Assembly: GCA_038043285.1 (NCBI GenBank)
Contig: JBBTCJ010000022.1
Coordinates: 15,539-79,538 of the forward strand
Source: Planctomycetota bacterium
GTDB taxonomy: Bacteria; Planctomycetota; Phycisphaerae; UBA1845
DNA length: 64,000 nucleotides
Direction of reading: 5' to 3'
Numbering within the stretch: the first letter of the stretch is position 1; each line of letters opens with the position of its first letter. The notes beneath the pieces are model-generated. The model ran no database searches. It was not told where the DNA came from and saw nothing but the letters and a program-made list of their open reading frames with translations. The position numbers and the translations under genes are program-made. Of the stretch, positions 7,992-36,168 are shown piece after piece.

Positions 7992-8747
7992 TTACGCTCG
8001 CCGCGTCCATTCTATTCCGGCGTACTTCGCGGTAAGCTGCCCGGCGAGTTCCAGCTCTCGGGCGGACCAGCTCCCCGGCTCTAGGTCGATGCCCGCGACG
8101 CGAGCCAACGCGTCGGGAAGCGACTGTTGCACGGTGTCCAGAGCGGTCGAAGCATCGGTCGCCGTCGCGGCGGTCGCCTGCTGAGCGAAACGATTCCCGA
8201 TGATGATCGAGCCGTGCTGAAGAATACCGTGCGGCGTGCGGCGTTGAGCGCTGCCGGCGATTTTTCCGCCGGCCGCAAGCAGGTCGTACCGATGCCTGCG
8301 TTCAAAGCAGAAGAACGGACCGCGGGCGGCGCCGGAGTCATCACCGCAGCCTGACGCGCTGGCGACAACTCCGAGCACATCCAGAACATCGAGGACGCCT
8401 GCGTGGACCATTTCGTACAGCTGACTGGGGCCTCGCGCGGTCACCAGCGGATGCGTCGCCGGCAGCGCAAGGGAATAGGTCACTTCGAGATCGTGCAGGA
8501 TCGCCCCGCCCCCCGTCTGGCGACGGACGACGGGCAGATTCCCCGCCGGCGGCGGAAGGCGCTCGTAGTCGGCGTAATGCTGAAAATAACCCAGCGAGAT
8601 CGTCGGAGTTGCCCAGCGATAAAGCCGGAATGTCGGCGGCGACGCCCCCTCCCCGACGCAAACGAGCAATGCTTCGTCGCGGGCCATGTTCGTCGGCCCG
8701 GAAAGCGGAGCATCGTGCAGGACTCGGATTCCCGAAGAACAGCTCAC
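7992..8747 (-). CDS. Lipoate-protein ligase / octanoyltransferase family protein (BPL/LPL catalytic domain)
   Basis: Motifs are 'NMARDEALL', 'LYRWATPTISLGYFQ', 'RRQTGGGAILHD.EVTYSL' and 'GKIAGSAQRR'. Confidence 0.85.
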   Translation of the reverse strand: MSCSSGIRVLHDAPLSGPTNMARDEALLVCVGEGASPPTFRLYRWATPTISLGYFQHYADYERLPPPAGNLPVVRRQTGGGAILHDLEVTYSLALPATHPLVTARGPSQLYEMVHAGVLDVLDVLGVVASASGCGDDSGAARGPFFCFERRHRYDLLAAGGKIAGSAQRRTPHGILQHGSIIIGNRFAQQATAATATDASTALDTVQQSLPDALARVAGIDLEPGSWSARELELAGQLTAKYAGIEWTRRA

Positions 8748-8849
8748 CGCAAAGTTCTACTCGAAGCGGCGAACTCGGCGAAGCGCCGGCCTGCGACGCC
8801 CGGCGCAAAGGATGAATCCGGTAACGCTCGTCAGCGGCGTAGGGACGAG

Positions 8850-9140
8850 TTATCTGCCTAAGTTATCGTGGTTCCAGCACCCCGTGCCCCAATCCACGAC
8901 CAGCGCGACTACCCCTGGGACCACTCCGGCCAACAACCACGCACAGTCGGCCGCGACCCACGGGCAGACCCCGTTTGCCCCGTCGCACTTCTCGGTCCGG
9001 CGGGCGTGCAGACCGGACGCATCGGTCTTGTGGGCCAGCGTCGCACAGCCGGAAAGACCCGGCATCGCGGCGGCAACGACCAGTGGGATGCATCGAACCG
9101 AGTTCCAAAACGACGAATCCGGCACGGAGTTCCCCTCCAT
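8850..9140 (-). CDS. Small lipoprotein, function unknown
   Basis: An AAGGAGG SD lies 8 nt upstream of the ATG. The signal peptide ends in the lipobox 'MPGLSGC'. The mature part contains 4 further Cys. Confidence 0.55.
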   Translation of the reverse strand: MEGNSVPDSSFWNSVRCIPLVVAAAMPGLSGCATLAHKTDASGLHARRTEKCDGANGVCPWVAADCAWLLAGVVPGVVALVVDWGTGCWNHDNLGR

Positions 9141-9215
9141 CTTTAATCCTCCTTGATTCTTCGATTCTCGGCGATGGTTTTCCGCAAGCTGGTCGCGCCA
9201 CTGCGCCGCGTATGG

Positions 9216-9455
9216 CTATTTCTTGTTGGGTTCCACCACCGGTTCGCCCGGAGCGACCATCTCGCCGGGGGAAACCATGTGCGGCTGCGACTCGTCCTGC
9301 GGCTCTTCCGCCGGTTGCGCCCTTTGCTCCCCATGCGGATCATTGTTGTAATCGTAGGTCCGAACCGATTTGTGCGAGGAGGTTGCGCATCCCGCCAACG
9401 CGGCCATCGACGCGGCCGCACCCAAGACTTCCAAAGCCCATTTCATCCGACGCAT
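9216..9455 (-). CDS. Small acidic, Pro-rich lipoprotein
   Basis: The ATG at 9455 has an aaggaaa SD. The N-terminus 'MRRMKWALEVLGAAASMAALAGC' contains a lipobox. Confidence 0.55.
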   Translation of the reverse strand: MRRMKWALEVLGAAASMAALAGCATSSHKSVRTYDYNNDPHGEQRAQPAEEPQDESQPHMVSPGEMVAPGEPVVEPNKK

Positions 9456-9486
9456 GTTATTTTCCTTGTGATCGAACTTGGTGATC

Positions 9487-9521
9487 CGAAAAAACACTGG
9501 ACCGGGTTTGACCCGGTCCAG
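9487..9521 (-). terminator. Rho-independent terminator after the LPP20-like gene
   Basis: The minus strand reads ctggaccggg-tcaaa-cccggtccag followed by TGTTTTTTCGG. Confidence 0.7.
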
Positions 9522-9590
9522 GCTGCGGCGTTTCTCAAGGTTCCCTGTAAAGCGCCGGGCGGCCGTCCCGCCGCGTTCTTGGACGGCGCC

Positions 9591-10916
9591 TTATCCGCGG
9601 CGTTGCACGATGACCATGTGCTGATGGACCACGCGCCAGACGTCGGCCGCCGGAAGCGTAACCGTCACCCGCGCGGTGCCCTGCTCGAAGATCGCCGGAG
9701 CCGTAACCGCGCCGTCGATGATCGCTTCCACCTGGGTGGTGATTTCGTCGTGCTGGGTCACGAAATCGCGAACCACGGTGCCCGACCGAATCTCCAGACC
9801 GTACACCTGCTCGGTGAGCTTGCGCATCCCGTCCAGCGCCGCGGCGCGGGCGGCCTTCAGCTTGCCCTGAGCGGTGTCCATGCCCGGATCCGTGCCCTCG
9901 CCGGTGGCTTCAATGGTCCGGTCCATCCACTGCGGCATTTCGACGCCCGAACTTTGCACCTGGCTGATGATCTGCCGGCGCGGCACTCCGGACCCCGTCG
10001 CCTGGATGTACTGCCGGTCGACCGTCTGCTTGATGTTCTGAATGTCCGTCGTGGTCACCTTGTTGCCGTGATAATGCTCGCTGTGAAGCTCTTTGATCTT
10101 GGTGACCACCTGCTCGACGGGGACTTCCATGGTCACCTCGGCGATCAGCTCATCCTCGTGGAGGTACTTGCCGACGCGGCGCGCGCCGATGACGATCCCC
10201 TGAGCCTGCGTGCTGATCTCGTCGGACTCGGTGATGAAGTCGCGGACCAGCGTGTCGGAGGTCAGCCGCAGCCCCTTGATCTGCTCCAGCAGCTTGCGCA
10301 TCGCGTCGACCTCGCCGGCGCGTTCGGCCATCAGGCGCTCGTTGGGCGGAACGGACTTCCAGATGCCGGGCACGGGCATGACGGCCGGGGGCTTGTATTC
10401 AGGTGGCAGCGGCGTGATCGCCTGCTCGACGCCCTGCGGAAGATTCGGCGGAAGGTCCGGACGCGGCGCGCCGGAACCCGTGACCTTGATCACGTCGGTC
10501 TTGATGCTTTCCTTGATCTGCTCGAAGTCCGTGGTCTTGACGGTGTTGCCCTTGTAATGGGCGGTGTGGACTTCCTTCAGCGTCGAGATGAGCTTGGCGA
10601 CGGTGACCTCGGCTTCCACCTCGCAGGCGCCGTCTTCGTAGTAGCGCGGTTGACCCAGGCGCACGCCGCGGATGAACGTATCCACGCCCGCCCGAATCTC
10701 GTCGCTCTCGGTGATGAAGTCCCGAACGTGCGTCTCGGAATTGATCTTCACCCCGTACACCGTCTCCGCCAACTTGCGGTAGCAGTCGGCCTCGGCGGCC
10801 CGACGCGCCAGTAGTTTGTTCTGTGCATCCCTGGCTGGATCCTGCGCCACGACGATGCCGACGACGGCCAGCGTCGCCCCGGTCGTCAGCCACGCCCAAC
10901 GTTTTCCGGTGAACAT
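9591..10916 (-). CDS. Secreted protein with three tandem LPP20/FlgP-like repeats
   Basis: The ATG at 10916 has an aaggag SD and is followed by a signal-like N-terminus. There are three repeats of 'A.RAA..D..RKL.E...G..I.S.T.VRDF.TESDEI'. Repeats 1 and 2 (~120 aa) also share 'HY.GN.V.TTD...IK......TGSG.PR'. Confidence 0.7.
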   Translation of the reverse strand: MFTGKRWAWLTTGATLAVVGIVVAQDPARDAQNKLLARRAAEADCYRKLAETVYGVKINSETHVRDFITESDEIRAGVDTFIRGVRLGQPRYYEDGACEVEAEVTVAKLISTLKEVHTAHYKGNTVKTTDFEQIKESIKTDVIKVTGSGAPRPDLPPNLPQGVEQAITPLPPEYKPPAVMPVPGIWKSVPPNERLMAERAGEVDAMRKLLEQIKGLRLTSDTLVRDFITESDEISTQAQGIVIGARRVGKYLHEDELIAEVTMEVPVEQVVTKIKELHSEHYHGNKVTTTDIQNIKQTVDRQYIQATGSGVPRRQIISQVQSSGVEMPQWMDRTIEATGEGTDPGMDTAQGKLKAARAAALDGMRKLTEQVYGLEIRSGTVVRDFVTQHDEITTQVEAIIDGAVTAPAIFEQGTARVTVTLPAADVWRVVHQHMVIVQRRG

Positions 10917-11113
10917 ATGGTTGCATCTCCTTGTTGAAACGGTCCGTCGGCCAACACGGATAAGCCCGCGCAGGTCCACGTTTCGATTGCGTATTCTCGT
11001 TGACACTTACAACCGCCGAAGGTTAGCCGTCCGTCTAAAGCCCCGTGCACGGGGGTCCGGAACATCTTTCCACCCCCGAAATGCCGGCGTCGTATCACCA
11101 TCGACCGGACGTC

Positions 11114-12160
11114 TTAGCCGCCCTTCCGTACGCGGCTGCCGTACGTCTTCACTCGATCGCGAGCCTCGGCATAGACCGGGTCGTCCGCCCCCGCACAGGC
11201 TGTCTTGTAGTTGTGCATGGCGCTTTCAAGGTTGCCCATCGCCTCGCCAGCGAGGCCCGCTCCGTACGCCGCCTGATGGTCGTTGGGGTTCTCCGCCAAC
11301 GCCGCCTGGAACGCACCGAGGGCCTCTCGATAGGACTCCGCGCGAAGGTAGCGCACGCCCTGGGCGCAGTTGGCGTTCCCGCTGGATTCGATCTCCGCCT
11401 CGACGTCGATGCGACAGGGCATCAACATGCTGACGAATTCGCGGGCCCCGCGCTCCACCAGCGATCCGATGATTTTGTCGGCGGGGGTGAGGTCGGCCTC
11501 CGTCGAGCTGGAACCGAAGATCGGGCTGGCCTTGGTCTTCTCCGTGGCGCTGTAGGTCCGCGGGCTGAAGTACTCCCACACCTTACCGTTGCCGGAATCG
11601 ACAAGCTTGAACGACACCTTCACGGTCATGTTGCGGGTGACGGTTTCGACCTCTTCGGTCTGGGCGCTGACGCTACCGCCGCCGCGCCGCCCGCCGCCCC
11701 AACCGGAGAGATCAAGTCCCGCCAGCGTGCGCTGTTTGCCCACGTGCTTTTCGACCTTCACCTCGATGTTGCTAAGCAGGTACCCCTCCGCGCCGATGAG
11801 TTGCCCGCCGCCGCCGCCCTTCTTGGTGGACAGCCCCGCGGCTGCGAGGTCTGCTTCGTCGAACACCGCCTGTGTGTCACGGCGCTCGGTAACGGTGATC
11901 TTCGCGCCGAACTTGCCGCGCGATTCGTTGATCAACGACTGAAGAATCGTGACCGAGATTTCCGACCACTTGGGATCCGTGGTCTCGCCGACCTTGGCCG
12001 GCATCACCGCAATCGTCTCCATGCCCGGCGGCAGCCCCTTGGCCGGCTCCACCGCATAGGCGAAGTTCACCACCGCCCGCTCCCTCGACGCGCACCCGAC
12101 CAACAGAGGCGACGCCGTCATCCCAATCCACAACAGTCTTTGCACCTTAGGCCCTAACAT
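11114..12160 (-). CDS. CsgG/LpoB-like lipoprotein with a C-terminal TPR-like tail
   Basis: The ATG at 12160 is preceded by a GGAGGTG SD. The lipobox is 'LLVGCAS'. The CsgG-like pattern is 'IAVMP...VTERRDTQAVFDEADLAAAGL...IGAEGYLLSNIEV...VKVSFKLVDSGNGKVW'. The TPR-like C-terminus is 'YREALGAFQAALAENPNDHQAAYGAGLA'. Confidence 0.65.
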   Translation of the reverse strand: MLGPKVQRLLWIGMTASPLLVGCASRERAVVNFAYAVEPAKGLPPGMETIAVMPAKVGETTDPKWSEISVTILQSLINESRGKFGAKITVTERRDTQAVFDEADLAAAGLSTKKGGGGGQLIGAEGYLLSNIEVKVEKHVGKQRTLAGLDLSGWGGGRRGGGSVSAQTEEVETVTRNMTVKVSFKLVDSGNGKVWEYFSPRTYSATEKTKASPIFGSSSTEADLTPADKIIGSLVERGAREFVSMLMPCRIDVEAEIESSGNANCAQGVRYLRAESYREALGAFQAALAENPNDHQAAYGAGLAGEAMGNLESAMHNYKTACAGADDPVYAEARDRVKTYGSRVRKGG

Positions 12161-12574
12161 CCGCACACCTCCCATGTCTAGAGTATCTGCTTGGCATCGT
12201 CACCTGCCGCGACCGCGCGTGGCAGCGGATGACCGACGGCCCAAACGAACGCGAGCCTTGCGTGACTCGCTTTGAATATCTGTGTAGCGACTGACCGCCA
12301 CACCCGCGTTGGGTGGGCGCCTTCGTCCGATAAGCATCCTATCCGGGAACGCCCGGGACGGCGAGCCATGCCGCCGACCCAGGGGCCGCAAACTGCCTTG
12401 AGGAGTCCAGGACGCGCAGATAGCACACCACCGCCCGCCCGCGACGTCAAGAAGCAGGCCGCGGGAAGCTGAGACCGTTCCGCCCGGCCCGGTTTTCTGT
12501 TCCGTTGCCCGTACCTACAATCGACGACCCGACGCGAAGGCGCGGACCCTGGCGACCTAGGAGCTTAAATACCC

Positions 12575-13786
12575 TTGACCCCCCGTCGGACAACGCGAAA
12601 GGTTATGGTCGGCGGCGTGCCCGTTGGCGGGGGTGCACCGGTGGCCATCCAGTCCATGACCAGCACTTACACCCATGACGTGGACGCCACCGTGCGGCAG
12701 ATCCGACAGTTGGCCGAGGCGGGTTGTGATATCGTACGGGTTGCGGTTCCGGACCGGAAGGACACCGAAGCCCTTCCGGCGATCCTCGATCAGTCACCCG
12801 TCCCGATCGTCGCGGACGTGCATTTCCACTATGAACGGGCGCTCGAGGCGATCGAGGCCGGCGTGCACAAGATTCGCTTGAACCCGGGCAACATCAAGGA
12901 CCGCGGGGAAGTCGACCGCGTCATCCGTGCGTGCCGCGAGCGCCGCATCCCCATCCGCGTCGGTGTCAACGAGGGCAGCGTCGTCGAACGCCGGGACAAG
13001 GAACTTCGCGGAGCGCAGATGGCCGACCTGGCGGTCGATCGCCGTGCGAGCCTGGTCCGGTTGATGGTCCAGACGCTGGAGCACTACCTGCGCATCTTCG
13101 ACGAGAACGACTTCCACGACGTCGTCCTGGCCGCCAAGAGCATCGACGCGGGACTGGTGATCGACGCCTACCGCGCGATCAGCGAGCGGTTTGATTTTCC
13201 CTTGCACCTGGGCGTGACCCACGCCGGTCCGCCGGAGACGGGGCGCATCCGCTCGATCGCCGCGCTGGGTGCGCTGCTGGCGAGCGGGATCGGCGACACC
13301 ATCCGCATCTCCTACGCCGCCGATCCCATTTTCGAGGTCGAGGACGCCAAGGAACTCCTCTGTTCGTTGGGGCTTCGCAACCGCGTCGAACCGGAATTGA
13401 TCGCCTGCCCCACCTGCGGGCGAATCGAAATCGATCTCATCAAACTGGTGGCCGAGGTGCGACAAAAACTCGCCACGATCAAGACGCCGGTGAAGGTCGC
13501 GGTGATGGGCTGCGTGGTCAACGGTCCGGGCGAAGCCGAAGGCGCCGACGTGGCCGTCTTCGCCGGCAAGGGGCGGGGGATCATCTACGTTCGGGGCGAG
13601 CAGAAGCGGACCGTGACCGAGGCGGAGATGCTCGACGCCCTGTACGAGGAAGCGGTGGCCTTTGCCGCCCGCGTCGAACGCGGTGAGGTCGCGCTCTCGG
13701 CGGGGCGAGTGAACATCGTGCCGCCGGATCCGTTGCCGAGGAGGGATGGGACGATCCCGTTGACGGTTGGCGTCCGACGGCGATAG
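12575..13786 (+). CDS. ispG: 4-hydroxy-3-methylbut-2-enyl diphosphate synthase
   Basis: Motifs are 'VGGGAPVAIQSMTSTYTHDVDATVRQIRQLAEAGCDIVRVAVP' and the cluster cysteines 'CPTCGR...GCVVNGPGEA'. Confidence 0.95.
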   Translation: MTPRRTTRKVMVGGVPVGGGAPVAIQSMTSTYTHDVDATVRQIRQLAEAGCDIVRVAVPDRKDTEALPAILDQSPVPIVADVHFHYERALEAIEAGVHKIRLNPGNIKDRGEVDRVIRACRERRIPIRVGVNEGSVVERRDKELRGAQMADLAVDRRASLVRLMVQTLEHYLRIFDENDFHDVVLAAKSIDAGLVIDAYRAISERFDFPLHLGVTHAGPPETGRIRSIAALGALLASGIGDTIRISYAADPIFEVEDAKELLCSLGLRNRVEPELIACPTCGRIEIDLIKLVAEVRQKLATIKTPVKVAVMGCVVNGPGEAEGADVAVFAGKGRGIIYVRGEQKRTVTEAEMLDALYEEAVAFAARVERGEVALSAGRVNIVPPDPLPRRDGTIPLTVGVRRR

Positions 13787-13797
13787 TCTCCACGCAT

Positions 13798-14991
13798 ATG
13801 TTTCTGTCCGATGATGAGCTGAGGCAGTTCGCGCACGGGCAGGAAAGCGGTCGCGTCGAACGCAAGGGATCGCTGAGTGACCGTGAACAGATCAAAAAAA
13901 CCATCTGTGCATTCGCAAACGATTTGGCCGACTGCCGGAAGCCCGGCATCCTGCTCATCGGTCTCGACGATGGCGGGTCTTGCGCTGGGTTGAAGCCGTC
14001 GGAAGCGTCCATACGCACAATCGTGGATTTCCGTGGCGAGGGGAACCTTCTCCCGCTCCCGACGTTCTGCGTCGAGTGGCGCCGGATTGACTCATGCGAC
14101 GTACTCGTCGTTCAGGTTGAACCATCCGCGGTTCCGCCGGTGCGCCTACGGGGCCGGGTTTGGGTTCGGATTGGTCCGACGGTTCGTGCAGCGACGCCCG
14201 AGGAGGAAAAACGACTTTCTGAAAGGCGCCGATGGCACGACTTGCCGTTTGACCATCAACCGATCGATGCGGCATCACCGTCCGATCTTGATATCCGTTT
14301 GTTCGAGGGGGTTTATTTGCCCGGTGCGATTGACCGAGAGGTGCTCGAGGCGAACCAGCGATCGTCCGTCGAGCAGCTCGCATCGCTACGGTTTTTGACC
14401 TCCAACGGGAGGCCCACGGTTGCGGGAATTCTTGTACTCGGAAAGGATCCGAGGCAATGGGTGCCTGCCGCATACGTGCAGTTTGCTAGATTCGCCGGAA
14501 CGGAGATTTCCGACGACGTACAAGACCAGAAGGAACTCTTTGGACCTATCCCTACGTTGATGCAAATGATGGAGGAGACCCTGGCGGTCAACATACGGAT
14601 TGCGACGCAGATCGGCGGAGGAGTCGTCGAAAGTCGGAACCCGGATTATCCGGTGGACGCGTTACGTCAGTTGGTGAGGAACGCCGTCATGCACCGCGCC
14701 TACGAGGGTACGCATGCGCCAGTGCGCGTTCACTGGTTCGCTGATCGAATCGAGATCTACAATCCAGGAGGACCGTTCGGGATCGTAAACCGCGGCAACT
14801 TCGGGCAACCCGGCGTGACGGACTACCGGAATCCGGTTCTTGCCGAGGCGATGAAGGTTCTGGGGTACGTCCAGCGTTTCGGCGCGGGGATTCCGATCGC
14901 AAGGAGGGAACTGGAGAGAAACCGGAACCCAGCGCCTGAGTTCTTCGTGGAAGCTGAACACGTCCTGGTCACGGTTCGCAAACAGCCATGA
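13798..14991 (+). CDS. Schlafen/AlbA_2-domain protein with a C-terminal HATPase_c_4/wHTH ('divergent AAA / RecG-like' family)
   Basis: The N-terminus is 'ESGRVERKGSL...ICAFANDLA...GILLIGLDDGG' (AlbA_2-like). The C-terminus is 'LRQLVRNAVMHRAY...IEIYNPGG...YRNPVLAEAMKVLGYVQRFGAGI'. It starts 11 nt after ispG, and the local sequence is AT-richer than the flanks. Confidence 0.8.
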   Translation: MFLSDDELRQFAHGQESGRVERKGSLSDREQIKKTICAFANDLADCRKPGILLIGLDDGGSCAGLKPSEASIRTIVDFRGEGNLLPLPTFCVEWRRIDSCDVLVVQVEPSAVPPVRLRGRVWVRIGPTVRAATPEEEKRLSERRRWHDLPFDHQPIDAASPSDLDIRLFEGVYLPGAIDREVLEANQRSSVEQLASLRFLTSNGRPTVAGILVLGKDPRQWVPAAYVQFARFAGTEISDDVQDQKELFGPIPTLMQMMEETLAVNIRIATQIGGGVVESRNPDYPVDALRQLVRNAVMHRAYEGTHAPVRVHWFADRIEIYNPGGPFGIVNRGNFGQPGVTDYRNPVLAEAMKVLGYVQRFGAGIPIARRELERNRNPAPEFFVEAEHVLVTVRKQP

Positions 14992-15995
14992 AAGCGATCG
15001 CCTTCTTTAACAACAAAGGTGGAGTGGGAAAGACCTCGCTTGTTTACCATCTGGCGTGGATGTTCTCGGATTTGGGCGTGCGAATTGTCGCCGCCGACCT
15101 TGATCCACAGGCCAACCTCACCTCGATGTTCCTCAATGAAGACAAATTGGAGAAGCTTTGGCCGGATTCCGACCACGACTTTACGGCGCTCGGTTCGGTT
15201 GCTCCGATTCTCAAGGGGACCGGGGACATAGCGGATCCACATGTCGAGGAAATCACGGAGAACCTTGGACTCATCGTCGGCGACCTGGGGCTCGCACGGT
15301 TCGAAGCAAAGTTGTCGGAGGCGTGGCCGAAATGCGTTGACCAAGACGAGTCGGCTTTCCGTGCCGTCTCTTCTTTCTATCGGATTCTCGTTTCCGCTTG
15401 CAAGAAACGCGATGCGGAGTGGGCGCTGATCGACGTGGGGCCGAACTTGGGCGCGCTCAATCGCTCAGCTGTTCTCGCCGCAGATTCGGTCGTCGTCCCC
15501 ATTGCCGCGGACTTGTACTCCTTACAGGGCTTGAAGAACCTCGGACCCACTCTGCGTGACTGGCGGAAGCAATGGAAGGACCGGCTCGAAAGGGTGCCGA
15601 AAGCCGACTCGCTGCCTCTTCCCCAAGGAGCGATGGAACCCGCAGGGTACATCGTCATGCAACACGCCGTTCGTCTGGATCGTCCGGTCAAAGCCTACGA
15701 GCGTTGGACACGGCGCATTCCAGAAACATATCGGCAGGAAATGCTTGAGGATCCTACGGAAGGAAGCCTTGACCCCAAGGACGACCCGGCCTGCCTTGCA
15801 TCGTTGAAGCACTATAGAAGCCTTATGCCGTTGGCCCAGGACGCGCTGAAGCCGATGTTTCAACTCAAGGCCGCGGATGGGGCTTTGGGAGCCCACGTAT
15901 CGGCGGTCCAGAGTTGCTACAATGATTTTAAATCGCTCGCCCTCAGGATAGCTAAGGTATGCGGGATTGAGGTACCGCGCTTCCACTCGCCCTAA
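14988..15995 (+). CDS. Orphan ParA/MinD-family ATPase with a ~120-aa C-terminal extension
   Basis: It has the deviant Walker A 'FNNKGGVGKTS' and 'DLDPQANLT'. Its start overlaps the upstream stop by 4 nt (ATGA). There is no parB-like gene nearby. Confidence 0.85.
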   Translation: MKAIAFFNNKGGVGKTSLVYHLAWMFSDLGVRIVAADLDPQANLTSMFLNEDKLEKLWPDSDHDFTALGSVAPILKGTGDIADPHVEEITENLGLIVGDLGLARFEAKLSEAWPKCVDQDESAFRAVSSFYRILVSACKKRDAEWALIDVGPNLGALNRSAVLAADSVVVPIAADLYSLQGLKNLGPTLRDWRKQWKDRLERVPKADSLPLPQGAMEPAGYIVMQHAVRLDRPVKAYERWTRRIPETYRQEMLEDPTEGSLDPKDDPACLASLKHYRSLMPLAQDALKPMFQLKAADGALGAHVSAVQSCYNDFKSLALRIAKVCGIEVPRFHSP

Positions 15996-28238: not shown

Positions 28239-29144
28239 ATGCCCACGACCTACCTGGGGGAGACGTGCGCCCTGGCGGCTGCGTTCACCTGGGCGACCGC
28301 CCTGGTGCTTTTCAAACGCAGCGGAGAACACGTTCCCCCGCTGACGTTAAACCTGTTCAAGAACTACGTCGCCATCTTTCTGCTCAGCGCGACGCTGCTC
28401 CCGATGTGGCTGCTGCAATCTCCAGACCCGTCCGATGGACCCTTGTCGTGGGGCGACCATTTGCTCCTGCTGATCTCCGGCGCCTTGGGCATCACGCTTG
28501 CCGACACGATGTTGCTTTACGCCCTCAATTTGGTCGGCGTCGGATTGGTGACCGTCGCGGAATGCACCTATTCGCCGCTGGTGTTCCTGTTTGCCTTCTT
28601 GATGCACGCCGAACCCATCACTCGGACGGACCTGATTGGAGGCGGATTGGTCCTCTCCGGAGTGTTCCTGTCTTCGACGCACAAGCCTCCCGCGAACCGC
28701 ACGCGCGGGCAGATTCTGCTGGGATCGGGGTTGGCCGTCGCGGCGATCGCCCTGGTCAGCTTCGCCATTCTGCTGGCCAAACCGGTGCTGGTGCACACCT
28801 CCCTTCTCAGCGCCACCCTGGTTCGGCTTCTCGGCGGGACGGTGCTGTTGACGCTCTTCCTGCTTGCCAGCCCCAACCGCCGGCAGCACTTCGCCGTCTT
28901 CAAACCCTCGCGGACCTGGTGGACGACGGTTCCGGCGGCTGTGACCGGGACGTACCTCTCGATGGTCTTCTGGATCGGCGGCTTCAAGTGGGCCAAGGCG
29001 TCGGTGGCGGCCATCCTCAACCAGAGCTCGACCATCATCGCCCTGATCCTCGCGTCGGTGATTCTGAAGGAGTCGTTCACCCGGCGTAAGGTCGTCGCCG
29101 CCGTCCTGGCGATCACCGGCGTGGTCGTCGTGGCCAGGGGGTGA
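28239..29144 (+). CDS. EamA/DMT-family transporter
   Basis: It is a ~10-TM protein with two EamA-like halves. The ATG at 28239 was chosen. Confidence 0.8.
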   Translation: MPTTYLGETCALAAAFTWATALVLFKRSGEHVPPLTLNLFKNYVAIFLLSATLLPMWLLQSPDPSDGPLSWGDHLLLLISGALGITLADTMLLYALNLVGVGLVTVAECTYSPLVFLFAFLMHAEPITRTDLIGGGLVLSGVFLSSTHKPPANRTRGQILLGSGLAVAAIALVSFAILLAKPVLVHTSLLSATLVRLLGGTVLLTLFLLASPNRRQHFAVFKPSRTWWTTVPAAVTGTYLSMVFWIGGFKWAKASVAAILNQSSTIIALILASVILKESFTRRKVVAAVLAITGVVVVARG

Positions 29145-29263
29145 CGCGGCGCTCGACCGCGGGTCCGCGATTGAAGTTCTCGGCGCTTGTTCGTCGATGA
29201 TCCATTCGATAGGCTTCCGCACCTTGTTTCTTCCGGGTCATCCATGACCGCGAGGGGGAGTTT

Positions 29264-31018
29264 GTGTCTCGTTTCGTGCCCAAGCTCGTCGTCTGCCTCA
29301 AGGAAGGCTACGACGCGAAGAAGTTCGTGCATGACTTGCTGGCTGGTCTGACGGTCGGCGTCATCGCCCTGCCGTTGGCAATGGCCTTCGGCATCGCCTC
29401 GATCCCGGAGAGCGTCGCGACCGAAGCGGGCCTCTCGCCTCCGGCCATGGGGCTGTTCACCGCCGTCGTCGCCGGCTTCCTGATCTCGGCCCTCGGCGGC
29501 AGCCGCGTGCAGATCGGCGGACCCACCGGGGCCTTCATCGTCATCGTCTACGACATCGCCAGTCGCCACGGTTACGGCGGACTGGCGACCGCGACGCTGA
29601 TGGCCGGCGTCATCATCGCCATCATGGGCGTCAGCGGCCTGGGCGGGATGATCAAGTTTATCCCCTATCCCGTCACCACGGGATTCACGTCCGGTATCGC
29701 GGTCATCATCGCCTCGTCGCAGGTCAAAGACTTCTTCGGGTTGGAAATGGGAAGCGTTCCGGCTGACTTCTTTGAGAAATGGCTGGCCTACGCCGAACAC
29801 GCCGCGACGTGGAATCCTGCTACGGTCGGCGTCGGTCTGGGGTCGCTCCTGGTGTTGATCCTTCTGCGAAGGTTCGTTCCGCGCCTGCCGTGGGGCGTCC
29901 TCGGCGTCATCGTCGGAACCGCGGTCGTGGCTGTCCTTCGCCTCGACGTCGAAACCATCGGCAGCCGGTTCGGAAGCATCCCTCGGACGCTCCCGATGCC
30001 CCACTTGCCGCCGATCACCCTCGACCTCGCCCGCAACTTGATCCCGGAGGCCACCACGATCGCCATCCTCGCCTCGATCGAATCCCTCCTGTCGGCCGTC
30101 GTCGCCGACGGAATGATCGGGGCGCGGCACAAGGCCGACTGCGAACTCGTCGCCCTGGGCGTCGTTAACGTCGGATCGGTCCTCTTCGGCGGCATTCCCG
30201 CCACCGGCGCCATCGCCCGCACCACCGCCAACGTCAAGAGTGGGGCAAAAACGCCCGTCGCCGGCATCATCCACGCCCTCACGTTGCTCGTGGTCATGCT
30301 CGCCCTCGCGCCGCTCGCCGGCGCGATTCCCTTGGCGACGCTGGCCGCCGTGCTCGTCATGGTCGCCTGGAACATGAGCGAGATCGACCACTTTCGCTAT
30401 CTTCTTCGCGCTCCCAAAAGTGACATCGCGGTGTTGCTGACCACCTTCGGTCTGACCGTGTTCACCGATCTGACTATCGCCGTCGGCGTGGGCATGGTGC
30501 TCGCGTCGATGCTCTTCATTCAGCGGATGGCCAACGTGGTCAACGTCAGCGCCATCACCGGCGAACTCGCCAACGGCGCGGATGAGCTGGAGGCCGCCGG
30601 CGACCCCAACGCCACCTCGCGGCGTGACATTCCTCCCGGCGTGGAGGTCTACGAAATCAACGGACCGTTCTTCTTCGGGGTGGCCGACCGACTGCAAGAC
30701 ACCCTGCGCGGCCTGGAGAAGCCGCCCAGGATATTCATTCTCCGCATGCGCCGGGTACCCGCCATCGACGCCACGGGCCTGCACGCCCTCCGCGAGTTTC
30801 TGATTAAATGTCGGAAGCAGGGCACCACGCTGCTGCTTTCCGGCGTGCACGCCCAGCCGCTCTACGCCTTCATCAACATCGGATTCGATCACGAGGTCGG
30901 CGTCGAGAACCTCTTCGGCAGCCTCGACGCGGCCCTGAGTCGGGCGCGCAGCCTCCTCGGCCTGCCCGCGATCCCCACCCCGCCCGGTGCGCTCTCCGAA
31001 GTCGCCCGCGAACGATGA
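29264..31018 (+). CDS. SulP-family anion permease with a C-terminal STAS domain
   Basis: Motifs are 'DLLAGLTVGVIALPLAMAFGIASG'-like, 'GGPTGAFIVIV' and the STAS segment 'YEINGPFFFGVADRL...LRMRRVPAIDATGL'. Confidence 0.9.
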   Translation: MSRFVPKLVVCLKEGYDAKKFVHDLLAGLTVGVIALPLAMAFGIASIPESVATEAGLSPPAMGLFTAVVAGFLISALGGSRVQIGGPTGAFIVIVYDIASRHGYGGLATATLMAGVIIAIMGVSGLGGMIKFIPYPVTTGFTSGIAVIIASSQVKDFFGLEMGSVPADFFEKWLAYAEHAATWNPATVGVGLGSLLVLILLRRFVPRLPWGVLGVIVGTAVVAVLRLDVETIGSRFGSIPRTLPMPHLPPITLDLARNLIPEATTIAILASIESLLSAVVADGMIGARHKADCELVALGVVNVGSVLFGGIPATGAIARTTANVKSGAKTPVAGIIHALTLLVVMLALAPLAGAIPLATLAAVLVMVAWNMSEIDHFRYLLRAPKSDIAVLLTTFGLTVFTDLTIAVGVGMVLASMLFIQRMANVVNVSAITGELANGADELEAAGDPNATSRRDIPPGVEVYEINGPFFFGVADRLQDTLRGLEKPPRIFILRMRRVPAIDATGLHALREFLIKCRKQGTTLLLSGVHAQPLYAFINIGFDHEVGVENLFGSLDAALSRARSLLGLPAIPTPPGALSEVARER

Positions 31019-31071
31019 CCGGCGAGTTCGTGGAAGATGAGCGAGCGGCTCATCGACGGTATACTCCTTCC

Positions 31072-32493
31072 ATGGAACAGCGGTCATCGCTTCCCCGGAT
31101 CATTCAAGGCGGCATGGGTGCCGCTGTCTCCAACTGGCGCCTGGCCAACGCCGTGGCACGATCGGGCCAACTGGGGGTCGTCTCCGGCACCGGCATCGAT
31201 ACGGTGTTCGTGCGTCGCCTGCAGGATGGCGATCGCGGCGGGCACATGCGGCGCGGTATGGAGCAGTTCCCGATCCGTCGTGCGGCGGACGAGGCCATGC
31301 GCGGCTACTTTCGCCCCGAGGGCCGGGCGCCGGGCGAGCCGTACAAGCTGCTCCCCCTGTACTGCCAGGTGGTCGCTCCCGCTCGGCGGGAGCTCACCAT
31401 GCTGGCCGCGTTTGTCGAAGTGTTCCTCGCCAAGGCGGGACACGATGCACCGGTGGGCATCAACCTTCTTACCAAGACTCAGTTGCTCACCCTGCCGACG
31501 CTCTACGGCGCGTTGCTTGCTGGGGTCGATTACGTCCTGATGGGCGCCGGCATCCCGCAAGAGATCCCCGGGGTGCTCGACCTGCTCGTTGGGCACCACC
31601 CGGCCCGGCTCCGATTCGACGTGGAGGGACTCGCCTCCGGCGCCGCCGAATACATCGCGTTCGACCCCGGCGCACATTGGGAGACGCTGCCGGAACCACT
31701 GGCGCGGCCGAAGTTCTTCCCGATCGTCGCAAGCAGCTCCCTGGCGATGATGCTTGCCCGCAAGGCGACCGGCCGGGTGGACGGATTCGTGATCGAAGGC
31801 CCCACCGCCGGCGGCCACAACGCCCCGCCCCGCGGGGAGCCGCGGTTCAACGAGCGCGGCGAGCCGATCTACGGCGAACGCGACGAGGTGGACCTCGAGA
31901 AAATTCGTGAGCTGGGACTGCCGTTCTGGGTGGCGGGTGGGGCCGGACACCCCGAGCGACTGATTGCGGCGCGTGAGGCGGGAGCCGCCGGACTCCAGGT
32001 TGGGACTCTCTTCGCCTTCTGCGACGAATCGGGATTCGCCGAGCCGCTCAAGCGCTCGGTGCTTGCCCACGCGGCCCGCGGGGAGGTGGACGTTCGCACG
32101 GAGCCTCGCGCATCGCCCACCGGCTATCCGTTCAAGGTCGTGAATTGGGCCGAGAATCCCGCCCTGGGCGTAACGCGGGAGCGAATCTGCGATATGGGGT
32201 ATTTGCGCGTCGCCTTCCAGGCGGCGGATGGGAAAGTGGATTACCGGTGTCCCGGTGAGCCTGAGGCCGCCTATGTGAAGAAGGGCGGGAAAGTGGAGGA
32301 CACGATCGGCTGCCAATGCCTGTGCAATGCACTGCTCTCCGTCATCGGTCATCCGCAGACCCGTGCCAACGGCACAGTGGAGCCGCCGATCGTTACCAGC
32401 GGCGATGACCTGGCGATCATCGGTGGCTTCCTGCGCGGCCGGACGAGCTACACCGCCGCGGACGTCGTCGCCTATCTGTTGTCGCCCGCGTAG
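31072..32493 (+). CDS. Nitronate monooxygenase / NPD-like FMN oxidoreductase
   Basis: Motifs are 'IIQGGMGAAVSNWRLANAVARSGQLGVVSGTG' and 'FVIEGPTAGGHN'. Confidence 0.8.
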   Translation: MEQRSSLPRIIQGGMGAAVSNWRLANAVARSGQLGVVSGTGIDTVFVRRLQDGDRGGHMRRGMEQFPIRRAADEAMRGYFRPEGRAPGEPYKLLPLYCQVVAPARRELTMLAAFVEVFLAKAGHDAPVGINLLTKTQLLTLPTLYGALLAGVDYVLMGAGIPQEIPGVLDLLVGHHPARLRFDVEGLASGAAEYIAFDPGAHWETLPEPLARPKFFPIVASSSLAMMLARKATGRVDGFVIEGPTAGGHNAPPRGEPRFNERGEPIYGERDEVDLEKIRELGLPFWVAGGAGHPERLIAAREAGAAGLQVGTLFAFCDESGFAEPLKRSVLAHAARGEVDVRTEPRASPTGYPFKVVNWAENPALGVTRERICDMGYLRVAFQAADGKVDYRCPGEPEAAYVKKGGKVEDTIGCQCLCNALLSVIGHPQTRANGTVEPPIVTSGDDLAIIGGFLRGRTSYTAADVVAYLLSPA

Positions 32494-32725
32494 CGTCCCG
32501 TACAGGGTAGGTTCGAGGGGTTCGGGGGGGATTCTGCGCGGGTGGTCACGGAAGGCGCAAGCACCAGCCCTTCCGGGCTTGACGCCGACGACGCCGAACG
32601 AGTGCAAAAAGTCGCACGAAAGGCGTAAACCCCCTCTTATTGATCCGATCCCTCCGTTTTGACATACTATGCCGTGGTGCTGAAGGTACGCTCCGGCGCA
32701 TCCACTTCCTTGAGGAGGGAAAGTT

Positions 32726-35700
32726 ATGTTTTCTCCAATCCGCCTTTTCGCGTTGTTGGCAATTCTCGCCACTCTTGCGGGCGACAGTGTACTTGCTCAA
32801 CCCGAGGGCGGAGAACCCATGAGCCTCGAAACCGCCCGGGCGTGGGTCGAGGCGCAACCCAGGACGTTCGAGAACCAAGTGCTGTTTACGGTGAAGGATG
32901 GTCAGATCGTTCGGTCCGGCCGCTTCACGACGGCCAGCGCGATCTTCGGCGACTTCGACGGCGATAGCGACGTCGATCTTTACGATTACATCGCGATGCA
33001 GATTTGCCTGAGCTTTTCCGGACCCGGAAGCGTCGCCCCTCCCGCTTGCAACGTGTTCGACGTCGAGGGGGACCAGGATACTGATCTGCATGACTTCGCC
33101 GCCTTCGCGGCAGCACACACGGGATCAACAAGCGTCGTGATGGTCGAGGCCGGAAACTTAGTCCCCGTTCGTGCCTCGGCCGATGGGTATTACAGCGGTG
33201 AGCCCGGTACCTCCGGCAATAACGCGCTTAACGGCAACGCTCAGCAGATGGGCTACGATCAAGACGACCTCTGGTACACGTGGTCGGTACAGTCGCAGAT
33301 GGCAGGAAGCGGCGAGATTGTCATTGGAAACACATCGCGTCCACGATCGGCGTTTACTGTTCTTCCGCCGCTTCCGGCAGGGCTCTACGTTTTTCATTTG
33401 TCGGTGGTGAATCTCGTGACGGGGGAATCAGGAGTCGATACGACTATCCTACGCGTAAACGATTGCCTCGCCGCCGAGGATTGCGACGATGGCGATCTCT
33501 GTACGACTGATACCTGTCAGGGTGGCGTTTGTCAGTTTACTGCCCTGACTTGCAATGACGAACTGGCCTGCACGAGCGACAGTTGCAACGAGGTAACGGG
33601 AACCTGCCTGCATGTTGACCTTTGTCCTTCCGGGCAGATTTGCGACTCGAATCTACGGACATGCGTCAGCTCGCCGGAATGCGAATTGACATTAGAAGCC
33701 GACGACATCGTCGGAACGGTCGGTGACGACGTTTGTGACGCGCCTTTGATCTTCTTTACGGGGACCGGAACCCTCATCGCCTCATTACAGACGGCGGATC
33801 GCGTGGATGCGCGCGGTGGCATGGACAGATTGGATGCAGAGCTTAACGGCGGGGTTGTGGCTCCGTCGTTGACGAGCATCGAAACCATCAACATTAGGGC
33901 GCTTACCGCCACGACGCTCAACGCCTCCAACTTCATGGGTGTCAATGCAATCAACTCCGTCGAAAGCCTGGGGACGTTAACCGTCGCTTCGATGCAGGAA
34001 CACACCGACATCGGCCTGTCGGAGATTACCGACGGCACGTCGGGTGTGAGCATCACCTTCGCCACCGCGGTGACCACCGGCTCGGCGGATGCGATTACCA
34101 CCACGCTGACCGGCGCCAATGCCGGCACGGTGACGGTCACCACCGGGGCGACCAACGGGTTTGAGACGTTGAACGTCGCCGGCACGGGCAGCACGGCCAA
34201 CACCCTGACCGCGATTACGCAGGGCACCGGCACCACGATGGTGACGGCCAACCTCGCCGGCGATCAGGCAACCCAGTTGAAGGCCCTGCCCTCGACGATC
34301 CGGTCCTACGATGCGTCGAGCATGACCGGCACTTTGACGCTGGGCAGCGGAACGCGGGCCGACGCCACTGACACCTATGCCTCGTTCGCCACGGTGGATA
34401 TCGCCAACATGACCGGCGGCACGGGCAACGACGTGTTCGTCTTCGGCGCCACGCTGGATGGCAGCGACGCGGATCAAGAGGATGAATGGATCGACGGCGG
34501 TGCGGGACACGATATCCTACAAATGACGATTTCGAGTAGCCGGGGTGGGCTGTTGCCCATCAGAAACATCGAGGAGCTTCGGGTCAACGCCTCGGCGAGC
34601 AGCTCGTCGTTCAGCCTGCTCAATGTCAGCGGCGTCAGCACCGTCACCGTCGAGTCGGACGACACGGCCAACACCATGACCGTGGACAACGTCCCGGTGA
34701 CCAGCACGGCGCAGACCTGGCCGACGCTGGCCTTCCGCGGCGACGGAACCCAGGCTGCCCAGACGTACGACACCATCACCTTCAACGGCTTCGGCGCCTC
34801 GGCTTCGGCCGGGGACAGTATGGCTGTGAACTTCGCCAACCGCGGCACGCCCCTCAACAGCTCGGGCACGACCAACGCCCACACCGTCACCTCGATGACC
34901 GTCGGAAGCAGTTCGTCGACGGGTATGGAAACCTTGACGATCACCGCGGCCGACGGCCCGTTGAGCGTGACCTCGACCACCACCTGCTTCTCCTGCATGG
35001 GCATCACCGTGACGGGTAGCTCGAACGTGGGTCTGGGCACGATGACCGGAACCGCCGACAGCGTCACGTCGCTGACCGCGACGGGCGTGACCGGCAACTT
35101 CACCGCCACCATCGACAACATGAACGGTGGAACGATCCAGCTCGGCACGGGCAACGACACGGTCGACACGACCGGTTCGGCGGCGTCGGCCATGGTCATT
35201 CAGGGAGGCGCAGGCAACGATACCCTCACCGGTGCGGGAGGTTCCGACAATATTCTGGGAGGTCGGGGCACCGACACCCTCGTGGGTGCGGCGGGCGCCG
35301 ATATGCTTAGCGGTGGTGACGACAACGACACCATCCAGGGCGATGGAAGCTCGGACACGATTACCACCGGAAACGGCGCGGATACGGTGGTTCTGACAAC
35401 CGTGGCTGCGGATTCAGCCAACGCGGATACCATCAGCGACTTCACCGCCGGCTCCGGCGGTGACCAGCTCGATATGGACATCTCGGCCCTCGAAACCAGC
35501 GGCGCGACGGACGCCAACGAGGCGGTCAACTTCGTCGAGCTTCAGGACGGTTCGGCGGTGGTGGATACCAATTCGATCGTGATCCAGGAGCTGACGCTTG
35601 ACGCCGCCGCAGGTGCGGTGGCGACGGTTGCGAACACCAACGTGTTCGTGGTGATTGGGACAGTCGCCAGCACGTCAGTGCTGGAGACGGCGCTCGAGGC

Positions 35701-35941
35701 CGGCGGTGACGTCGAGCTGACGATCGCGGCGGCCGGCGGCGACATCACCAGTTGTTTCCCGGTTGTCTACAGCAACGCGACGGACGCCTTCCTGGCGATC
35801 TGCTTCGCGGAAACCGAGGGCGTGGACGACACGAACTTCGAGGCGGCTGACCTCGTGTGCATCAACATCGCCAAGATGTCGAGCAACGCGGCCATCACCG
35901 CCAGCGAGTTCGTGGCGGCCAACTTCGACTTCGTGCCGTAA
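32726..35941 (+). CDS. Large secreted protein: signal peptide, dockerin-like Ca motifs, Cys-rich module, Thr/Gly/Ser-rich beta-rich region and RTX (GGxGxD) repeats
   Basis: A gaggaggga SD precedes the ATG. Dockerin-like motifs are 'GDFDGDSDVDLYDY' and 'DVEGDQDTDLHDF'. The Cys-rich module is 'CDDGDLCTTDTCQGGVCQF..CNDELACTSDSCNEVTGTC'. The RTX block is 'GGAGNDTLTGAGGSDNILGGRGTDTLVGAAGADMLSGGDDNDTIQG'. Confidence 0.8.
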   Translation: MFSPIRLFALLAILATLAGDSVLAQPEGGEPMSLETARAWVEAQPRTFENQVLFTVKDGQIVRSGRFTTASAIFGDFDGDSDVDLYDYIAMQICLSFSGPGSVAPPACNVFDVEGDQDTDLHDFAAFAAAHTGSTSVVMVEAGNLVPVRASADGYYSGEPGTSGNNALNGNAQQMGYDQDDLWYTWSVQSQMAGSGEIVIGNTSRPRSAFTVLPPLPAGLYVFHLSVVNLVTGESGVDTTILRVNDCLAAEDCDDGDLCTTDTCQGGVCQFTALTCNDELACTSDSCNEVTGTCLHVDLCPSGQICDSNLRTCVSSPECELTLEADDIVGTVGDDVCDAPLIFFTGTGTLIASLQTADRVDARGGMDRLDAELNGGVVAPSLTSIETINIRALTATTLNASNFMGVNAINSVESLGTLTVASMQEHTDIGLSEITDGTSGVSITFATAVTTGSADAITTTLTGANAGTVTVTTGATNGFETLNVAGTGSTANTLTAITQGTGTTMVTANLAGDQATQLKALPSTIRSYDASSMTGTLTLGSGTRADATDTYASFATVDIANMTGGTGNDVFVFGATLDGSDADQEDEWIDGGAGHDILQMTISSSRGGLLPIRNIEELRVNASASSSSFSLLNVSGVSTVTVESDDTANTMTVDNVPVTSTAQTWPTLAFRGDGTQAAQTYDTITFNGFGASASAGDSMAVNFANRGTPLNSSGTTNAHTVTSMTVGSSSSTGMETLTITAADGPLSVTSTTTCFSCMGITVTGSSNVGLGTMTGTADSVTSLTATGVTGNFTATIDNMNGGTIQLGTGNDTVDTTGSAASAMVIQGGAGNDTLTGAGGSDNILGGRGTDTLVGAAGADMLSGGDDNDTIQGDGSSDTITTGNGADTVVLTTVAADSANADTISDFTAGSGGDQLDMDISALETSGATDANEAVNFVELQDGSAVVDTNSIVIQELTLDAAAGAVATVANTNVFVVIGTVASTSVLETALEAGGDVELTIAAAGGDITSCFPVVYSNATDAFLAICFAETEGVDDTNFEAADLVCINIAKMSSNAAITASEFVAANFDFVP

Positions 35942-35993: not shown

Positions 35994-36168
35994 CGGAGCG
36001 ACCCAAAGATTGACCTGCTTCTCTGCTTGACTCCGGTTCGTAAGTTTTGTATTTGTTAGGTTTTGCGTGTTTCAAGGAAGGAGACGCGAGATGCCTGGCG
36101 ATCGAAGCAAACGGCCGATTCCGGGGGCAATGGACGTGGGCACGTTGCAGCTGAAAATCGGGGCGTGC

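Follow-up and report, generated by a model that had tools for sequence, protein, structure and literature searches.

A conserved three-gene module of Phycisphaerae encoding a triple FlgP/LPP20-type repeat protein and two lipoproteins, a candidate periplasmic scaffold

In a 64,000-nt stretch of a Planctomycetota bacterium genome (contig JBBTCJ010000022.1, class Phycisphaerae; ∼65% GC; hereafter the window, whose coordinates are used throughout), we identified a conserved set of three neighboring minus-strand genes, here called G1, G2, and G3. G2 encodes a Sec-exported protein of three fused modules of the FlgP/LPP20 type, G1 a lipoprotein with a predicted CsgG-type fold and a tetratricopeptide repeat (TPR) tail, and G3 a mini-lipoprotein with a conserved C-terminal motif. 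From the homologies, export signals, and gene linkage described below, we infer how these proteins may interact, oligomerize, localize, and function: in an evenly balanced judgment, they would be three subunits of a single scaffold that lies in the periplasm and is tethered to the outer membrane.

Gene calls and conservation of the three-gene unit

A first-pass annotation of the window had described four consecutive genes here with strong Shine-Dalgarno (SD) sites, three of them with lipoboxes and one with a signal-like N terminus. The SD positions and cores were as claimed, as were the lipoboxes of G1, G3, and the fourth gene, G4, and the Sec signal of G2 (Table 1). All four genes carry an SD core of at least 5 nt (cores of 5 to 7 nt) compared to only ∼5 of the 22 other Pfam-supported genes in the window; these sites are therefore strong for this genome and stronger than those of most window genes. 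The strongest of the four belongs to G4. Codon-position GC content backed all four reading frames.

A scan of one genome per species with G2 found relatives in at least 214 genomes, the best 80 loci of which were analyzed. The first-pass annotation had described a run of four genes; the conserved unit is the three genes G1-G2-G3, and G4 is lineage specific, with no tblastn match in any of the 80 related loci. Of the 74 species-level loci with enough flanking sequence, 64 have G1 as the gene directly upstream of G2 (identities of 49 to 71% for G2 and 29 to 76% for G1). Two automated criteria placed G3 after G2 in at least 63 of 76 loci, and inspection by eye did so in ∼70. G3 is indeed a lipoprotein gene, as annotated, but rather than being one of four it belongs to the unit as a conserved third partner, and its product bears a characteristic motif at the C terminus. 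For G1 as well as G2, there are hundreds of homologs of the same length at ∼60 to 75% identity (58 to 76% for G1); the named ones come from Phycisphaerae, Phycisphaerales, or Planctomycetota metagenome-assembled genomes, and the window G2 is identical to a "Planctomycetota bacterium" protein.

The linkage extends to a distant metagenomic locus (L094), where the trio is kept around a G2 ortholog 35% identical over its full length. The G1 counterpart at this locus is a lipoprotein with TPRs that matches G1 by BLASTP (E = 1e-4) and scores 27.9 bits against Pfam CsgG (cut-off, 20.8). The third gene encodes a 40-aa mini-lipoprotein in the G3 position, without the C-terminal motif. A two-module variant of G2 is also followed by a mini-lipoprotein, ending ...KIIVE. 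The pairing of a CsgG-like with an LPP20-type gene to which the first-pass annotation drew attention therefore recurs across species and persists at this depth of G2 divergence.

Domain architecture of the three proteins

The annotation of the 441-aa protein G2 as three tandem LPP20/FlgP-like repeats held up, with Pfam, PDB-profile, and Foldseek matches in agreement. Repeats 2 and 3 align to repeat 1 with 43% and 40% identity, respectively, and the extension HY.GN.V.TTD..IK...TGSG.PR was seen, as proposed, on repeats 1 and 2 and not on repeat 3. G2 scored 44.5 bits against Pfam LPP20 (PF02169; gathering cut-off, 25.9) in two stretches. Its homologs were already annotated with PF02169, one being auto-named "LPP20 family lipoprotein"; no NCBIfam model matched G2. 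The only significant matches among PDB sequences were flagellar FlgP chains. With G2 as a single sequence, chains 9hmf, 9yds, 9yfg, 9yec, and 8z5n matched at E values of 2e-8 to 8e-6, and with a 45-sequence family profile the FlgP chains matched at 3.5e-12 to 2.6e-7. The best match was Campylobacter jejuni FlgP (9hmf; E = 2e-8 with the single sequence and 3.5e-12 with the profile), while Vibrio FlgP (9yds, 9yfg, 9yec, and 8z5n) matched the profile at ∼1e-7. Helicobacter pylori Lpp20 was unmatched by the G2 profile among PDB sequences at E ≤ 1. Within G2, module 3 gave the best match to C. jejuni FlgP, and the alignment is gapless and of equal length from helix 1 to the next core strand. This segment holds the ring-building hairpin of FlgP and is the most conserved part of each G2 module.

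The AlphaFold2 (AF2) monomer model of G2 is compact (predicted local distance difference test [pLDDT] of 85.8; predicted template modeling score [pTM] of 0.82), and each module is predicted to adopt an SHS2-like fold in which a three-stranded sheet packs on a long helix. The top Foldseek matches were FlgP (9hmf; probability 1.0) and Lpp20 (5ok8; probability 0.96), at E values (0.02 to 0.14) that are weak because a three-domain query was used. The strand I.(V/A)TGSG.PR that closes the extensions of modules 1 and 2 shares its motif with the strand that canonically comes first in LPP20/FlgP domains. G2 has one first strand in the canonical place, IEATGEGTDP, which precedes helix 1 in module 3. 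In relatives with 2, 4, or 6 modules, too, such a strand comes after every module except the last and before the last module. Judged from these motifs, modules 1 and 2 could be circularly permuted, or each could donate a strand to its neighbor; both arrangements fit, and either would rigidify the array, consistent with the high pTM.

G2 is not itself a lipoprotein: it has a type I signal peptide, and a lipobox is absent in 44 of 45 homologs. Together with Cys45 and Cys98, which are conserved among homologs, this is consistent with a soluble, disulfide-bonded periplasmic protein.

The AF2 model of G1 (pLDDT 79.7) comprises an α/β domain, a very long hairpin, and a TPR tail; a lipobox is present in 44 of 45 homologs. 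The best fold match in Foldseek was HpaA of H. pylori (9.5e-6), with FlgT of Vibrio (5e-5 and 1.6e-4), PelC (1.6e-4), and GNA1162 (9e-4) also found, all at a probability of 1.0. CsgG structures 4uv2, 6l7a, and 4uv3 matched at E values of 6e-5 to 1e-3 (probability 1.0), with HpaA, FlgT, and PelC equal or better. The first-pass annotation had called this protein CsgG/LpoB-like, with Gly-rich insertions and a TPR tail. The CsgG-type fold, the TPRs, and the Gly-rich loops (residues 95-104, 113-122, and 150-162, modeled at low confidence) were recovered, but both Pfam cut-offs were missed: G1 scored 14 bits against CsgG (PF03783; cut-off, 20.8) and 12.6 bits against LpoB (PF13036; cut-off, 22.3). 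Only 3 of 45 G1 homologs matched Pfam CsgG at E < 1, although one homolog is named 'CsgG' by JGI. Pfam LpoB matches in 11 of the 45 were all subthreshold (best E = 0.013), and LpoB structures were not among the top 50 fold matches of G1. The distant counterpart at L094, which passes the CsgG cut-off, lends support to the earlier link to CsgG. On the strength of sequence and model, G1 is predicted to have a fold of the CsgG/PelC/HpaA/FlgT-M type without being a member of the CsgG family. The most frequent non-TPR family among the homologs was DUF6340 (PF19867; 29 of 45, best E = 5e-7), with matches that run from the C-terminal half of the α/β domain into the beginning of the TPRs. Against a cut-off of 26.4, two homologs just pass (P0195, 26.5 bits; P0205, 29.5 bits) and another falls below (P0222, 20.1 bits); the window G1 had no DUF6340 match at E ≤ 1. 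DUF6340 is an uncharacterized family, and no mention of it was found in the literature searched.

Two parts of G1 stand out as potential interfaces. The strands of the long hairpin, LSNINVKVEKHVGKQRTL and TEEVETVTRNMTV, hardly vary among homologs and carry charges on both faces, and K, E, R, and T abound in their distal portions (KVEKHVGKQR / TEEVETVTR) in place of an alternating hydrophobic pattern. The tip, by comparison, is variable and Gly/aromatic, of the form G(W/F)GGHG(W/Y)GGG (pLDDT < 50). The conserved charged faces speak against a membrane barrel of the CsgG kind and favor a conserved protein-protein interface. Mean column identity in the homolog alignments is 71% for G2 and 67% for G1, and these high values, together with the conservation of both hairpin faces, fit proteins with multipartner interfaces. 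The second part is the TPR tail. TPR models were matched by all 45 homologs, and the family profile matched consensus TPR structures at E = 1e-31; the window G1 itself scored just below the TPR_16 cut-off (E = 5e-7; 30.5 versus 32.7 bits).

In G3, the lipobox is followed by an acidic linker, with the conserved motif MVSPGEMVAPGEPVVE at the C terminus. G3 aligns with small open reading frames (ORFs) 3' of G2 in other genomes, which encode 50- to 80-aa lipoproteins with the same acidic linker and C-terminal motif. This motif usually reads ...SPGEM(V/I)V(E/D), with variants SPGTMIVE, SPGEPIVE, QGEMIVE, and SPGQMVVDP, and the SPGEM unit is present in one to four copies in close relatives.

Table 1. 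Coordinates of the genes, protein segments, and sequence elements described in the text (window positions unless a related locus is named)
Feature	Coordinates	Strand	Details
G1	12160..11114	minus	348 aa; SD GGAGGTG at 12172-12166, 5 nt 5' of ATG; lipobox LLVG-C23
G1 long β-hairpin	11597..11785	minus	residues 126-188; strands 126-151 and 164-188 (AF2)
G1 TPR tail	11132..11374	minus	residues 263-343; five helices, ∼2.5 TPRs; AF2 pLDDT 92-97
G2	10916..9591	minus	441 aa; SD AAGGAG at 10932-10927, 10-nt spacer; signal peptide ...VVGIVVA/QDP, no lipobox Cys
G2 module 1	10461..10838	minus	residues 27-152; extension ends in strand IKVTGSGAPR
G2 module 2	9978..10355	minus	residues 188-313; extension ends in IQATGSGVPR
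G2 module 3	9594..9920	minus	residues 333-441; canonical order, IEATGEGTDP strand before helix 1, no extension
G3	9455..9216	minus	79 aa; SD AAGGAAA at 9467-9461; lipobox LAG-C
G4	9140..8850	minus	96 aa; SD AAGGAGG at 9154-9148; lipobox LSG-C
Intrinsic terminator between G2 and G3	9487..9521	minus	stem 9521-9497, 11 bp (8 GC), 3-nt loop, then TGTTTTTT
Promoter-like element TTGACG-N19-TGCTAT	12420..12450	minus	262 nt 5' of G1 start codon; putative function
G2 paralog	L081:7455-8738; counterparts in L060, L067, L069, L073, L076, L080, L086		between G3 and FlgT_N gene
FlgT_N-domain protein	L081:8767-9918, L066:7557-8714, L094:6511-7656; also L095-L174

Wider relatives, transcription signals, and gene surroundings

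A G2 profile retrieved 258 clusters (50% identity) at E ≤ 1e-30 and 1107 at E ≤ 1e-10. Module number in these relatives ranges from 2 to 6, and long coiled coils are present in some. Examples with 2 to 6 FlgP-like modules are P0248 (1448 aa), P0303, the P0328 family (∼580 to 600 aa), P0250, P0254, and P0279, and in some multimodule relatives the order is module, coiled coil, module.

Two additional genes join the module in sister clades; neither lies within the 64-kb window. One, seen after G3 in 8 of the 80 genome loci and mainly where no G1 is adjacent, encodes a 427-aa lipoprotein paralog of G2. At ∼23% identity to G2, the paralog has three LPP20-like modules and no Pfam match. The other gene encodes a ∼380-aa secreted protein and lies near the module at L094 and in 10 of the 80 genome loci, 11 loci in all. 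Its N-terminal domain is FlgT_N (PF16548), matched by 9 of 10 members (one at 37.0 bits versus a cut-off of 28.8), and its profile matches C. jejuni FlgP at 5e-5; the FlgT_M and FlgT_C domains were not detected in this protein. A metagenome scan with the FlgT_N protein recovered the cluster of the G2 paralog and the FlgT_N gene in ∼33 of 80 loci; outside the cluster, the FlgT_N gene adjoins a retropepsin-like gene and ribH-nusB-ftsY. By analogy, the presence together of FlgO-like, FlgP-like, and FlgT_N-like proteins echoes the parts list of the Vibrio H-ring.

Upstream of G1, the promoter-like element TTGACG-N19-TGCTAT was found in 15 of 59 related loci versus a background of 0.005 per 420 nt. 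It emerged only from the comparison of loci; a generic sigma-70 scan returned no promoter. In relatives, this element stands back to back with a near-consensus sigma-70-like ispG promoter. Across the aligned intergenic region between ispG and G1 (window 12420-12525), relatives share a GCCGAT box between the two promoter-like elements. The G1 leader is ∼255 nt long in the window, longer than in relatives. A riboswitch or leader RNA for G1 was considered and dropped: the structure of the ∼255-nt leader was unexceptional (z = -0.46 versus shuffles), with no Rfam family, and an Rfam search of the whole region 8600-12700 gave no match.

G4 encodes a small Cys-rich lipoprotein whose mature part contains six Cys; a hydrophobic stretch lies at its C terminus. 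G4 was called as a gene on same-species contigs only, and its GC3 of 0.78, exceeding GC1 and GC2, supports its being a real gene. An lplA-like gene is likewise without counterpart in the 80 related loci. ispG is the frequent divergent neighbor of the module, and the remaining neighbors vary. At L019, L020, L029, L031/L089, and L088, the module is followed by a PilT-type ATPase gene at a distance of a few hundred bases to ∼3.4 kb; a link to type IV pili was set aside as too weak, given that pilT occurs in only four to five loci and that the PilW match of the TPRs is generic.

Elsewhere in the window, the other genes with strong SD sites are ispG, RseP (426-2963), an RTX gene (32726-35941), a TPR/FG-GAP gene (36067-39615), and a cytochrome c gene (61152-62639). 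Apart from ispG, these encode secreted, envelope, or membrane proteins, which hints that SD strength tracks export in this genome. Between ispG and pntA (13798-15995) lie an AlbA_2/Schlafen-HATPase_c_4 gene, disrupted on one same-species contig, and a ParA/CbiA-like ATPase gene. This is the sole stretch with GC down to 0.58, and relatives hold other genes there; it may be an inserted island. Two large adjoining minus-strand ORFs (839 and 562 aa; 28568-32772) have no Pfam match at E ≤ 1e-5, and AT skew there is strongly negative (-0.17 to -0.25).

Proposed assembly, alternatives, and significance

In the assembly that we propose, G2 would be the main building block, Sec exported and nonlipidated, with three covalently linked FlgP/LPP20-type (SHS2) modules stabilized by a Cys45-Cys98 disulfide. 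G1 would sit in the outer membrane through its lipid anchor and hold G2 beneath the membrane, with the charged hairpin and the TPR tail serving as interfaces. G3 would act as a lipid-anchored peptide tether whose acidic C-terminal motif docks onto G2 or into the TPR groove of G1. TPR domains dock short C-terminal peptides in other systems, such as Hop/SGT with EEVD and PEX5 with PTS1, and our guess, by analogy, is that a TPR domain and a short conserved acidic C terminus are combined here in a similar way. The assembly would most likely be an oligomeric ring, arc, or lattice, because its parts resemble the FlgO-FlgP(-FlgT) rings of Vibrio and the FlgP disk of Campylobacter.

The premise of the first-pass annotation that FlgP- and FlgO-type lipoproteins build rings associated with the outer membrane is borne out by published structures. 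In Vibrio cholerae, the lipoproteins FlgO and FlgP assemble into concentric C58 rings that touch through hairpins, the FlgO hairpin contacting the FlgP hairpin sheet of the H-ring (10.64898/2025.12.02.691832). The module resembles this system in its lipid anchoring, in the adjacency of an α/β lipoprotein with a protruding β-hairpin to an LPP20/FlgP-type protein, and in the FlgT_N-domain protein that joins the cluster in sister clades. In Vibrio, the order of flgO and flgP is also that of a lipoprotein gene and then an LPP20 gene. However, G2 is nonlipidated and fuses three modules, G1 has a TPR tail and no detectable sequence similarity to FlgO, and there is an extra mini-lipoprotein, G3. The module also lies outside any flagellar gene cluster, with neither MotX nor MotY seen nearby.

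The basal disk of C. jejuni offers the best sequence match to G2 (9hmf) and other parallels: its inner FlgP ring consists of 17 trimers, with additional FlgP rings in the disk, and FlgQ, which resembles a two-FlgP repeat, is a precedent for tandem FlgP-like repeats (PMC12222027). The FlgP trimer is the repeating unit of the inner ring, and G2 has three modules; however, FlgP is a single-domain lipoprotein, whereas modules 1 and 2 of G2 add a C-terminal extension (a helix and the TG.G strand). Nonlipidated FlgP homologs exist, and operons pairing a lipoprotein with an FlgP-type protein (FapH-FlgP) have been documented (PMC11756786). H. pylori Lpp20 (HP1456) belongs to the same Pfam family, LPP20, and superposes on G2 modules (root mean square deviation [rmsd] of 3.9 Å), but it is a single-domain lipoprotein whose partner proteins differ from G1 and G3. 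CsgG, PelC, HpaA, and GNA1162 share with the N-terminal domain of G1 a TolB-N-like α/β fold and an N-terminal lipid anchor, and outer-membrane lipoproteins of this group tend to form rings. G1 differs in lacking amphipathic membrane hairpins, in its TPR tail, and in having no curli or Pel genes nearby.

Several observations weigh against a common scaffold. In the AF2 monomer, G2 has two short strands and two helices where FlgP has its ring-forming β-hairpin, and its modules superpose better on Lpp20, which does not form rings, than on FlgP (rmsd of 8.6 Å). Searches of the PDB with the G1 sequence and profile gave only TPR chains among the matches listed, with FlgO (entry 9yds) unmatched. An adjacent G1 is missing in 10 of the 74 genomes, and coiled-coil LPP20-repeat relatives had no G1-like neighbor in the contexts examined. 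The surroundings of housekeeping rather than flagellar genes and the sigma-70-type promoter-like element, taken up below, count against the scaffold as well. In this window, the 135-nt gap between G2 and G3 is interrupted by an intrinsic terminator, which the first-pass annotation had located correctly: a stem-loop followed by TGTTTTTT was found, and the 91-nt stretch containing it (9470-9560) has a minimum free energy of -39.8 kcal/mol (z = -4.5 versus shuffles). The corresponding gap in relatives is short (∼40 nt), which suggests that the terminator is probably lineage specific or only partly efficient. The main competitor of the scaffold, an unlikely one in our estimate, draws on several of these points. 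The proteins would then be monomeric or small-complex envelope lipoproteins that build no ring, like the surface antigens Lpp20 and HpaA of H. pylori, with a role in adhesion, outer-membrane homeostasis, or some other periplasmic process. HpaA is the best fold match of G1, Lpp20 gives the best superposition of the G2 modules, the G2 monomer is compact and without extended hairpins, and the gene context is one of housekeeping. Against this competitor stand the very high conservation across a class, including both faces of the G1 hairpin, the strict linkage of three genes, and the variable number of tandem modules among relatives (2 to 6), a typical trait of scaffold proteins. Two further alternatives are very improbable. 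If G1 were a CsgG-like outer-membrane secretion channel of a curli-like system, with G2 and G3 as substrate or accessory, the CsgG-like fold, the JGI name, and the distant ortholog above the CsgG cut-off would be explained. We rejected a curli-type pore given that G1 itself fails that cut-off, as do nearly all homologs in showing no CsgG match, and that its distal hairpin, charged instead of amphipathic, is unsuited to a membrane barrel; in addition, there are no CsgA/B/E/F-like genes nearby, and G2 is a folded multidomain protein rather than an amyloid subunit. The combination of TPRs with a lipoprotein is reminiscent of Lpo proteins, and the weak Pfam LpoB matches in a quarter of homologs (11 of 45) would suit a peptidoglycan synthase regulator similar to LpoB or LpoA, with an LpoB-like domain, a TPR tail, and G2 and G3 as unrelated neighbors. 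This, too, was rejected as the principal explanation on fold and Pfam evidence, there are no penicillin-binding protein genes nearby, and the conserved G1-G2-G3 linkage favors a shared function.

The flagellar motor is the leading, though unproven, candidate for the machine that the proposed scaffold would surround. In this narrower version, which we regard as possible but doubtful, the scaffold would be an accessory of the Phycisphaerae flagellar motor equivalent to the H-ring or basal disk, in which fused FlgP trimers (G2), the FlgO-like G1, and an FlgT_N protein encoded elsewhere may be arranged around the L/P rings. G2 is nearer in sequence to flagellar FlgP than to the nonflagellar Lpp20, FlgO-like, FlgP-like, and FlgT_N-like proteins co-occur in related loci, and every FlgP, FlgO, or FlgT placed by experiment is flagellar. 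However, no flagellar genes were found within the 64-kb window, and a fliM gene occurs in only 1 of the 80 related loci; the module is thus unclustered with flagellar genes in the window and in 79 of 80 loci. Its neighbors are housekeeping genes across all the loci examined (ispG and, for the FlgT_N protein, ribH-nusB-ftsY), the promoter-like element of G1 is of the sigma-70 type, and the remaining FlgT domains went undetected in the FlgT_N protein. The lone fliM (L089:12718-13719), which comes after a PilT-type gene, lies 1.4 kb away, such that at least one carrier genome has a flagellar gene close by. It also suggests that flagellar genes are scattered in these genomes, which would make gene context a weak test.

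The component families, LPP20, the CsgG-type fold, and TPRs, are already recognizable, and the module is not a new kind of protein. What appears undescribed is the arrangement: a fused, apparently permuted triple module that is nonlipidated and is accompanied, clade-wide, by two lipoprotein partners, one of them a putative peptide-like tether. In the literature searched, neither FlgP-/LPP20-type proteins in planctomycetes nor LPP20 together with CsgG was found. Should the proteins not oligomerize, what remains would be a set of envelope lipoproteins specific to one clade and of modest interest. Under the scaffold hypothesis, the G3 motif together with the TPR groove would offer a simple means of docking. 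FlgP-, FlgO-, and FlgT-type proteins are a textbook case of adding rings to an old machine, and all structural placements to date come from Gamma- and Epsilonproteobacteria. Tentatively, G1-G2-G3 with the G2 paralog and the FlgT_N protein could be the planctomycete counterpart of the proteobacterial flagellar outer-membrane disks, in which a covalently fused FlgP 'trimer' might be held by a CsgG-fold/TPR lipoprotein and a mini-lipoprotein tether. Alternatively, the same parts may have been recruited for a nonflagellar ring or lattice under the unusual outer membrane of planctomycetes. If they do form a disk counterpart, then FlgP/FlgO/FlgT-type disks would be much older and more widespread than Proteobacteria. 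The module thus provides concrete candidates for components of the poorly understood planctomycete envelope and motor, and it bears on whether disk-building proteins arose once or were recruited repeatedly.

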